NCBI GenBank assembly: GCA_000165345.1 | Contig: CM000435.1 | Span: 1,152,001 to 1,216,000, forward strand | Direction of reading: 5' to 3' | Length of the DNA: 64,000 nucleotides | Shown: piece after piece, positions 42,214-44,103 of the stretch | How positions within the stretch are numbered: the first letter of the stretch is position 1 | Layout of the letters: each line of letters opens with the position of its first letter | Made by a program: the position numbers and the translations under genes | The notes under the pieces: generated by a model | Databases searched by the model: none | Seen by the model: the letters and a program-made list of their open reading frames with translations, nothing else | Told to the model about the DNA's origin: nothing

Positions 42214-44103
42214 ATGTCGACAAGAATTCAAATTTTCCTGTTAACTGTGCTTTTTATTGGATTATTTAACGATTCAGTGTCACAATTTACACAAAACTTG
42301 AAAATAATTGAATCAAAGTCTGTATGTGTAGATTCAGATATTTATGATTCAGAAACAGATATGTGCCTGGCGAAAGTTAATGCAATAAGTAAAAGTTGTC
42401 CTAAAAATTGTCAAAAGTTTGGTCATCTCTGCAAATGCATTGATGAAATTCCAATTCAGTCAATTTGCCCAAGCGAATATGTTCTTTCTCCAAATATGAA
42501 AAAATGTATCAAAGTGGAAAAGCTTGCACCTTCAATAGAATGTGGGAGAGGATTAAAGTGGTCAGAAAGTAAAAATATATGCGTTGGAGTAAAGTTATCA
42601 GCTCCAGAGCTGACATGTAGTAAAGAGAATTCCATGTTAATTAATGGAGTTTGTTTGACGTATAGTAAAAAGAGTATTCAAAATGTTTGTGAAGATGGGT
42701 TTATTATTAGGGAAAAAAATATATCAGAAAAGTCACAAACTGTCAAGTTAAATACAAGAGGAATTAAGACTGGACATCAGAATAATAATGATGAATCGAG
42801 AATTAGTACAAGTTATTGTGTAAAAGAACTTAGCTCACCTTATAATTTAGAATGCCCCAATGGTTTTATTCTAGACAGAGAAAGATCTTCATGTATTTCT
42901 CAGGTTTTCAGTGATCCAGAACCTAAATGCTTACCTGGCTTTGAGTTTGATAATAAATCTGAAACTTGCGTAAATAGGTCATTAGAAGAGTCTTCCAGCA
43001 GAGTATGTCCAAAAGATTATGTGCTTGAAGGTTTTCAGTGCGTCCAATCATCTTTTGTCAGTCCTGAGCCACGATGTAGAGAGGGATTCGTTTTTAGTGT
43101 TGAAGATGCTGCATGCATTAAAGTATTACGAGAGCCTCCATCATATAGATGCCCTTCTGATTTATATATTTTTGATGGAAAACAATGCGAACTAAGAAAA
43201 ACAGAGAAACCAACAATAATGTGTGGAAATGGGACCATTTTAGACGAAAAGATACAAAAGTGTGTTAAAATCAATGTAATGCCAGCAACAATGGTTTGTT
43301 CAGGAGGAAGACAGTATGACGAAGATAAAAGAAAATGTTATGTAATTCAAGTTCAAGAATCTAACAAAACTTGCTCAAGTGAAGAAAAATATGATCCAAA
43401 AAGGGATATGTGTATTAAATTTGAAGAAAAGAAACCCGTCAAAGGTTGCCCTTATGGTTTTAATCTTAATGAATTAGAACAAATTTGTGTTCAAGAAAAC
43501 TTCGAAGAACCCAAGCTCTCTTGTAAGGCTCCTTTCTCCTTAGTTGGAGGGGACTGCCTTTATAATGCTGAAGTTCAACCCGAATATGTTTGCCCTGAGA
43601 ATTTTGAGTATAATGCACAAAATTCGCAATGTTTAATGCAAAGTACTATACAGCCTGAAAATGGGTGCCCCGAAGATTATAATGAGTACATTGATAAATG
43701 TATTAAACAAATAGAAAAGAATCCAGTAAGTGTATGCCCTACGAATTCAAAGTTAAACACAATCACAAATGAATGCTTTATTCCTAAAAAACCATTGAAG
43801 GAGTGCCCTACAGGGTTTAAACCAACTAATGATTCTGCCACTCAATGCATTCAAATATTAAATCAAAATAGACCTCAAGCTATCCAAACTACCCACAGCA
43901 ATAATAACAGACATCACAACGGTCATCATCAAGCTTTCATTGGAGATTACTACAATAATCATCCCAATATAAGAAATTTCGGAGATGTAAGTAATACCCA
44001 GGTGCAAACAGTTCAACTATCAAATCCTAATAGAAGAATAGGAGATCCCAGCTTAAATGTATATCCTCAAAACATTAAAACCGCACCTAGACCAAGAAGG
44101 TGA
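42214..44103 (+). CDS. Secreted cysteine-rich repeat protein, oocyst-wall-protein (COWP)-like
   Basis: It has a signal peptide followed by ~16 copies of a C-P-x-G/D-F/Y-x-L-x(3-5)-C-I/V unit with regular Cys spacing, and a His/Asn-rich C-terminus. The repeat resembles the type I repeats of apicomplexan oocyst wall proteins. Confidence 0.55.
   Translation: MSTRIQIFLLTVLFIGLFNDSVSQFTQNLKIIESKSVCVDSDIYDSETDMCLAKVNAISKSCPKNCQKFGHLCKCIDEIPIQSICPSEYVLSPNMKKCIKVEKLAPSIECGRGLKWSESKNICVGVKLSAPELTCSKENSMLINGVCLTYSKKSIQNVCEDGFIIREKNISEKSQTVKLNTRGIKTGHQNNNDESRISTSYCVKELSSPYNLECPNGFILDRERSSCISQVFSDPEPKCLPGFEFDNKSETCVNRSLEESSSRVCPKDYVLEGFQCVQSSFVSPEPRCREGFVFSVEDAACIKVLREPPSYRCPSDLYIFDGKQCELRKTEKPTIMCGNGTILDEKIQKCVKINVMPATMVCSGGRQYDEDKRKCYVIQVQESNKTCSSEEKYDPKRDMCIKFEEKKPVKGCPYGFNLNELEQICVQENFEEPKLSCKAPFSLVGGDCLYNAEVQPEYVCPENFEYNAQNSQCLMQSTIQPENGCPEDYNEYIDKCIKQIEKNPVSVCPTNSKLNTITNECFIPKKPLKECPTGFKPTNDSATQCIQILNQNRPQAIQTTHSNNNRHHNGHHQAFIGDYYNNHPNIRNFGDVSNTQVQTVQLSNPNRRIGDPSLNVYPQNIKTAPRPRR

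Follow-up and report, generated by a model that had tools for sequence, protein, structure and literature searches.

The question raised by this locus is what kind of protein is encoded by a long, cysteine-rich open reading frame (ORF) in a 64,000-nucleotide stretch of DNA (positions 1,152,001 to 1,216,000 of contig CM000435.1, assembly GCA_000165345.1; hereafter the window), and whether such a protein can reveal the lineage from which the DNA comes. An initial annotation, made from the sequence alone, had described it as a secreted protein resembling the oocyst wall proteins (OWPs; COWPs in Cryptosporidium), thus as a structural component of an oocyst or cyst wall and a marker of the source lineage. 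We found that the gene is COWP5 of Cryptosporidium parvum, which has been named since 2004 and was localised experimentally in 2025, and that the window is part of C. parvum chromosome 7; there is nothing new in the gene itself. Our overall reading, with a probability of about 0.93, is that C. parvum COWP5 is the counterpart of Toxoplasma gondii OWP3 (TgOWP3) and a secreted, disulfide-stapled rod of the inner oocyst wall. The COWPs are of practical importance, as the oocyst wall makes this waterborne, diarrhoeal parasite resistant to chlorination.

In the list of ORFs of the window, whose G+C content is about 30%, the gene appears as one uninterrupted frame with exactly the boundaries and strand given in Table 1. 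An exact-sequence look-up showed that its 629-residue product is 100% identical, residue for residue, to 'oocyst wall protein 5' of C. parvum Iowa II (EAK90472.1; UniProt Q5CXS2), and the exact protein is also found in three further C. parvum entries or assemblies. The Iowa II gene has the same genomic neighbours and we detected no difference between the two, which are the same gene. A larger segment of 21.9 kb (positions 32214-54103 of the window) aligns with 0 mismatches to positions 1225341-1247230 of CP141124.1 in the C. parvum chromosome assembly GCA_035232765.1, and the COWP5 gene call is the same in two C. parvum assemblies. A wrong database identity is very unlikely, because several independent assemblies match exactly. 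COWP5 corresponds to cgd7_5150, for which a published CRISPR design mentions Thr623 (PMC12548878), and residue 623 of the window protein is a threonine. Orthologs with 45-99% identity are present in C. hominis, C. tyzzeri, C. meleagridis, Cryptosporidium chipmunk genotype I, C. ubiquitum, C. canis, C. felis, C. bovis and C. ryanae, and all 42 cysteines of COWP5 are invariant in orthologs of more than 10 Cryptosporidium species, as seen in an alignment of 12 sequences.

These cysteines (6.7% of the residues) are very regularly spaced: among the 41 intervals from one cysteine to the next, 37 measure 10-14 residues, compared with a mean of 6.5 such intervals (standard deviation 2.3, maximum 18) in 20,000 shuffles of the protein, so that the periodicity is far beyond chance. 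The repeated unit, of about 25 residues and two cysteines, can be written C-[P]-x-[GD]-[FY]-x-[LF]-x(5-7)-C-[IVL]-x(5-7)-P-x(3)-C. In this phase, COWP5 contains 19 two-cysteine units and an additional four-cysteine knot (C62, C66, C73 and C75), the second cysteine being followed by I, V or L in 16 of the 19 units. From the N-terminus, one degenerate unit (residues 38-61) precedes the knot (CPKNCQKFGHLCKC), which is followed by four units (residues 85-213), the last of them split by a cysteine-free insert of 42 residues, and then by 14 uninterrupted units running from C202/C214 to C545. The initial annotation had counted about 16 repeats with four residues between the G-F/Y-x-L motif and the second cysteine; the repeats and their general pattern are real, and it is the count and the spacer, which is of 5-7 residues, that had to be corrected. 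Its predicted signal peptide was well founded, since the only strongly hydrophobic stretch of the protein covers residues 3-19, predicted as a helix (the five highest Kyte-Doolittle windows of 13 residues start at positions 3-7). This N-terminus fits a signal peptide, and no other candidate membrane segment is apparent.

Conservation among orthologs differs from one region to the next. The N-terminal cysteine module is the most conserved block, and the cysteines of the 14-unit array are all invariant in the 12 orthologs; alignments to TgOWP3, COWP1 and other OWPs also fall in this array. The cysteine-free insert is poorly conserved and variable, with insertions and deletions, and residues 169-197 have a predicted local distance difference test score (pLDDT) below 50. 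The C-terminal tail, previously described as rich in His and Asn, is indeed rich in Asn (15 residues); it has only six His, in one small cluster (HSNNNRHHNGHH), and Gln (9) and Arg (8) are also prominent. Its conservation is low except at the extreme C-terminus, where N620, I621, K622, T623, A624, P625, P627 and R628 do not vary in any of the 12 Cryptosporidium-type sequences aligned, whose overall identity goes down to 45-49%. This NIKTAPxPR motif is absent from TgOWP3.

We took the definitions of repeat types I and II from two sources (PMC4514997; bioRxiv 10.64898/2026.05.05.722909), the type I repeat being a unit of six cysteines (PMC4514997). Counted in this way, the 42 cysteines correspond to 7 x 6, and the two-cysteine sub-unit is clear. 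We detected no three-unit (six-cysteine) superperiod in COWP5, either from the similarity of units as a function of lag or from residue autocorrelation: both peak only around 25 residues, the autocorrelation having its maximum at lag 25 and weakening at multiples of it. Tandem Repeats Finder detected no tandem repeat at the DNA level inside the COWP5 gene, indicating that the units are ancient and diverged. COWP5 is best placed among the COWPs that have type I repeats only, because it contains few His (eight in total, six of them in the cysteine-free tail) and lacks the His-interrupted cysteine repeats of the His-rich type II members, in which shorter six-cysteine units take turns with stretches of His.

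To place the protein among its relatives, we searched 1.84 billion representative proteins exhaustively with phmmer (E <= 0.001), which yielded only 221 proteins. Among eukaryotic matches outside the COWP5 orthologs were the OWP3 of Toxoplasma/Hammondia (E 1.8e-50), an 'OWP3' of Cardiosporidium (E 3.8e-35), an 'oocyst wall protein' of Vitrella (E 2.1e-31), COWP1 (E 1.9e-29), proteins from the gregarine Blabericola (E 2.7e-27) and from Rhytidocystis (E 2.6e-25), and an 'oocyst wall protein' of Besnoitia (E 3.9e-09). By BLASTP, COWP5 is collinear with OWP3 over residues 32-555 (E 1e-51), essentially an end-to-end alignment, and matches COWP1 with its cysteines in register (E 1e-21). Comparison with the COWP1-9 and TgOWP families thus gave significant matches to COWP1 and OWP3 in addition to the exact match to COWP5, bearing out the family assignment of the initial annotation. 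COWP5 combines a predicted signal peptide without a transmembrane domain, regularly spaced cysteines, similarity to COWP1 and TgOWP3, and identity to a named member. In the OWP family (COWP1-9 and Toxoplasma OWP1-7), tandem arrays have a cysteine about every 10-12 residues, and an N-terminal signal peptide without a transmembrane domain is a family feature (PMC12548878). These comparisons identify COWP5 as one of the nine paralogous Cryptosporidium oocyst wall proteins and as the counterpart of Toxoplasma OWP3.

TgOWP3 (640 residues in T. gondii/Hammondia hammondi) is the best apicomplexan match outside Cryptosporidium and has a similar length. It exhibits the same N-terminal knot (CPANCEFDVNGTCSC in TgOWP3), a cysteine-free insert at the same position and a C-terminal array of 14 units, and it shares with COWP5 the block CIK[VI]LREPP. 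However, the two proteins have only 25% identity, the insert of TgOWP3 is longer and acidic, and TgOWP3 lacks both the Asn/His-containing tail and the NIKTAPxPR end. The collinear alignment, the common knot, the position of the insert and the CIK[VI]LREPP block indicate that COWP5 and TgOWP3 are very probably orthologs. Several Cryptosporidium COWP5 orthologs are annotated 'OWP3' in databases, and in a published tree COWP5 and TgOWP3 are among the characterised OWPs with potential orthology to rhytidocystid clusters (PMC7522995). COWP1, the founding member of the family (cgd6_2090, 1622-1623 residues), has, as COWP5, a signal peptide and two-cysteine CP-x-G-[FY] units and is likewise evenly distributed in the oocyst wall (PMC12548878). 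It differs in being 2.6 times longer, in combining type I with His-rich type II repeats, in its shorter units (21 and 23 residues) and in its high expression, whereas COWP5 is dim (PMC12548878).

The assignment to the oocyst wall comes from published imaging. A second copy of COWP5 fused to mNeon and placed under its own promoter or that of cowp1 labels the whole oocyst wall evenly, unlike COWP2-4, which mark the suture (PMC12548878); the wall localisation proposed by the initial annotation therefore holds for the tagged protein. COWP5 is expressed weakly relative to COWP1, COWP6 and COWP8, and its dim signal is consistent with low transcript levels (PMC12548878). Transcripts of the COWP family peak at 48-72 h (PMC1779779; PMC3734150), and macrogamonts produce COWP1, COWP6 and COWP8, whose secretion follows fertilisation (PMC12548878). 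AlphaFold2 modelling of the full-length protein with the ortholog alignment gave a pLDDT of 64.5, with residues 169-197 of the insert and 549-629 of the tail predicted as disordered. A model restricted to residues 324-497 reached 80.6 and presents the same three-strand pattern in each unit, so that the repeat region is predicted to form a chain of small beta-hairpins. For COWP4 and COWP6, elongated models stabilised by disulfides have been put forward (bioRxiv 10.64898/2026.05.05.722909). By analogy with the family, COWP5 would enter the endoplasmic reticulum via its signal peptide, where each unit would fold into a small beta-hairpin stapled by disulfides; the wall-forming bodies of the female gamont would then hold the protein, which would be released after fertilisation and laid into the inner protein layer of the oocyst wall. 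Intra-molecular and probably also inter-molecular disulfides among COWPs would there produce a rigid and chemically resistant shell.

Several points weigh against this picture of COWP5 as a structural rod of the wall. The localisation comes from a second, tagged copy; three attempts to tag the endogenous C-terminus failed, which the authors attribute to the disturbance of a closely spaced downstream gene. An earlier study, cited in PMC3734150, analysed purified walls by mass spectrometry and did not detect COWP5. Parasites deleted for COWP8, a far more abundant paralog, showed no phenotype, which makes a load-bearing role of a minor paralog such as COWP5 uncertain. Finally, the full-length model has only moderate confidence, and both the disulfide connectivity of COWP5 and its inter-molecular cross-links are features that we infer.

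The CP-x-G-[FY] unit also invites comparison with other cysteine-rich families. No Pfam or NCBIfam model reaches its threshold on COWP5, and a search of the Protein Data Bank (PDB) with the COWP5 ortholog profile produced only a chance match (E 0.17). One alternative is that COWP5 is a secreted adhesin or ligand binder of the epidermal growth factor (EGF), growth-factor-receptor or tumour necrosis factor receptor (TNFR) kind, with a role on host cells or sporozoites and not in building the wall. EGF-like/cEGF and growth-factor-receptor cysteine-rich repeats are also small disulfide-stapled beta-hairpins with a C-x-x-G-[FY] signature, and the C-P-x-G-[FY]...C unit resembles the C-terminal hairpin of EGF-like modules. 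Moreover, the cEGF model (PF12662) weakly matches COWP5 (E 0.015) and, at E <= 0.01, six of 12 orthologs (best 0.0012); its match to COWP1 is stronger (7.6e-14). In databases COWP1 is labelled 'growth factor receptor cysteine-rich domain containing', and COWP6 is reportedly also secreted by sporozoites and able to bind host cells (bioRxiv 10.64898/2026.05.05.722909). However, EGF-like/cEGF modules have six cysteines per unit versus two in COWP5, and the cEGF score of COWP5 (15.6 bits) is below the cutoff of 26.6. For TNFR, which the initial annotation had named with EGF as the competing families, no Pfam match to COWP5 was obtained at E <= 1, and the only TNFR-family structure listed by Foldseek, 4-1BB, has an E-value of 0.24, a probability of 0.04 and a template modelling (TM) score of about 0.09. 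Structural comparison of the COWP5 model with solved EGF, TNFR and furin-like domains gave no significant match. We consider a function of this kind very improbable and rejected it on the basis of the sub-threshold cEGF score, the lack of a TNFR match in Pfam and the lack of a structural match.

Even less probable is that COWP5 acts as a chitin-binding, peritrophin-like lectin anchoring a polysaccharide layer. This idea stems from a resemblance to CBM_14 (Table 1), which occurs at E <= 0.01 in eight of 12 orthologs (best 2.8e-5), falls in the most conserved part of COWP5 and accounts for the label 'Chitin-binding type-2 domain containing protein' that some orthologs carry in databases. The score is nevertheless below the gathering threshold (21.2 bits versus 22.1), the match spans less than 8% of the protein, and the homologous knot of TgOWP3 gives no CBM_14 match at E <= 0.01. 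A match dominated by cysteines is expected from the composition, and the resemblance of the N-terminal knot to CBM_14 is probably cysteine-driven. Chitin synthesis is not known in Cryptosporidium, whose oocyst wall is described as consisting of protein and acid-fast lipid. We rejected the lectin hypothesis on the sub-threshold score, the homologous TgOWP3 knot devoid of a match and the small coverage. As for a chance open frame or pseudogene with an accidental, compositional cysteine pattern, we found nothing in its favour, and it is refuted by the full length and every cysteine being kept in orthologs at 45-99% identity, by a periodicity far outside that of the shuffled sequences, by gene calls in independent assemblies with conserved neighbours, and by the published expression and imaging of COWP5 (PMC12548878).

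COWP5 is thus best read as an oocyst wall protein, and there remains the second part of the initial question, its value as a lineage marker. The exact sequence does mark the lineage, but the repeat type does not, as it is also present in the chromerid Vitrella, gregarines, Rhytidocystis and Cardiosporidium (PMC4501334; PMC7522995), with a very similar unit in marine bacteria. The OWP domain had already been reported in Vitrella (PMC4501334). Among the matches listed, the best phmmer scores outside Cryptosporidium belong to giant secreted bacterial proteins and not to eukaryotic OWPs; the E-values of these bacterial proteins against COWP5 range from 1e-46 to 7e-76, and some of them outscore most eukaryotic paralogs. 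They include a metagenome protein, P0016 (4,088 residues, 304 cysteines, E 7e-76), WP_188927108.1 of Shewanella algicola (2,829 residues), WP_184423909.1 of Thalassotalea piscium (3,524 residues) and a protein from a Colwellia metagenome-assembled genome (4,031 residues). By BLASTP, about 28 of the 149 listed matches outside the COWP5 ortholog group are closer to this bacterial set.

These proteins of marine Alteromonadales and other bacteria (P0016, P0017, P0019-P0021, P0023, P0025, P0030 and P0194) consist of tandem two-cysteine units of about 23-25 residues (CPsGYTLsGs.C.k...) that are in register with those of the OWPs (CPpGy.L.Gg.CVk...). At non-cysteine columns, the agreement between bacterial and eukaryotic units is 7-8 standard deviations above a column-permuted null. 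The bacterial proteins differ in their size (2,000-4,000 residues), their number of cysteines (100-300), their richness in Ser and Thr and their C-terminal domains of the bacterial Ig-like/PKD types. One of them is locally similar to the cysteine-rich part of TraN (E 7.6e-44; 149.8 bits versus a family cutoff of 603). P0194 (955 residues, L009:6001-8868) sits among ordinary bacterial genes on a contig of 4.8 Mb. When a 588-residue fragment of P0016 was used as protein query, only three proteins were retrieved, one of them P0194, and two scans of reference-genome contigs (queries P0016 and P0021) gave no confirmed locus of the bacterial family. A PDB sequence search with the Thalassotalea protein returned nothing, in none of the proteins scanned did the repeat region bring a Pfam or NCBIfam model to its cutoff, and we found no paper on a bacterial OWP-like unit in the literature searched.

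Whether the bacterial likeness reflects homology or convergence, a lineage cannot safely be told from the OWP-like repeat type alone. As a tentative proposal, with the odds somewhat against it, we suggest that the CPxG[YF]xL...C unit is not exclusive to alveolates and has an origin shared with bacteria, which would point to gene transfer in one direction or the other; the same caution applies to a separate part of this proposal, namely that the NIKTAPxPR end and an upstream CATGCA/TGTCCACAT block are undescribed functional elements of COWP5. The bacterial repeat proteins, the OWP repeat itself, which has neither a solved structure nor a curated profile, and the conserved upstream and C-terminal motifs might repay further work.

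Table 1. Features of the COWP5 gene, its product and its surroundings (positions in the window; aa, amino acid residues of COWP5).
Feature	Position	Strand	Basis or remark
COWP5 (cgd7_5150), complete coding sequence, 629 aa + stop	42214..44103	+	Intronless ORF, ATG start
Predicted signal peptide, about aa 1-24, MSTRIQIFLLTVLFIGLFNDSVSQ	42214..42285	+	Only strongly hydrophobic segment; AlphaFold helix 3-19, then low-confidence linker
N-terminal cysteine module, aa 38-159: 4-5 two-Cys units and four-Cys knot	42325..42690	+	Cysteine map
Resemblance to CBM_14 (PF01607, chitin-binding peritrophin-A), about aa 51-100	42364..42507	+	Pfam E 3.3e-4, sub-threshold
Cys-free insert, aa 160-201, inside unit 5	42691..42816	+	43-residue Cys-Cys gap; predicted disordered
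Array of 14 two-Cys units, aa 202-545, putative core OWP type I repeat rod	42817..43848	+	Cys gaps of 10-14 throughout
Asn/Gln/Arg-rich, His-containing C-terminal tail, aa 546-629 (84 aa)	43849..44100	+	Composition; pLDDT 25-36, predicted disordered
Invariant C-terminal motif NIKTAP[RK]PR, aa 620-628	44071..44097	+	Ortholog alignment
Upstream motif cluster: three CATGCATA copies with 8-bp spacing, then TGTCCACAT	41858..41902	+	312-356 bp before COWP5 ATG
E2F-like element TTGGCGCCAA	44126-44135		23-32 bp after COWP5 stop; conserved in C. ubiquitum and C. canis
Other positions of TGGCGCCA	25221, 27289, 29395, 47163, 47171, 50054, 62330
Small RRM-domain protein, 121 aa	44272-44637	+	Directly downstream of COWP5; ATG at 44272
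dUTPase, 176 aa	44733-45263	-	Downstream of RRM gene

The upstream motif cluster lies within a divergent intergenic region of 538 bp. CATGCAT occurs 20 times in the window, versus 7 expected. Upstream of the COWP5 orthologs, at -310 to -390, clusters of CATGCA are present in C. ubiquitum, C. canis and C. bovis; those of C. felis are less clear. Two of these species, C. ubiquitum and C. canis, also have the adjacent GTCCACA/TCCACA element. The motif types reported upstream of COWP genes are AP2_1-like and A[T/A]G[T/A]GGA.A (PMC3734150), and both the CATGCA-type and the [G]TCCACA elements match motif types reported for COWP promoters in that study. The conserved CATGCA/TGTCCACAT block may therefore have a regulatory function.

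On the other side of the gene, the palindromic E2F-like sequence TGGCGCCA is found eight times in the window, versus 0.07 expected, always between the long ORFs listed. The TTGGCGCCAA copy located just after COWP5, in a downstream intergenic region of 168 bp, is probably a promoter element of the next gene, which encodes the RRM-domain protein; a promoter role there would fit the fact that tagging of COWP5 at its native locus failed in the published work. C. ubiquitum, C. canis and C. bovis all keep the same gene order: a divergent gene encoding a 302-residue protein, COWP5, the RRM protein and the dUTPase.

At a greater distance from COWP5, the minus strand carries an ORF of 1,632 codons (35322-40220), whose product has no recorded Pfam family. 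Within it lies a long, imperfect tandem array (periods of 24-57 bp), especially at 37186-37745. The coding strand of this array is purine-rich, so that its product is probably rich in Glu and Lys. The array causes the strongest skew in the window (GC -0.48 and AT -0.45 at 36-38 kb).

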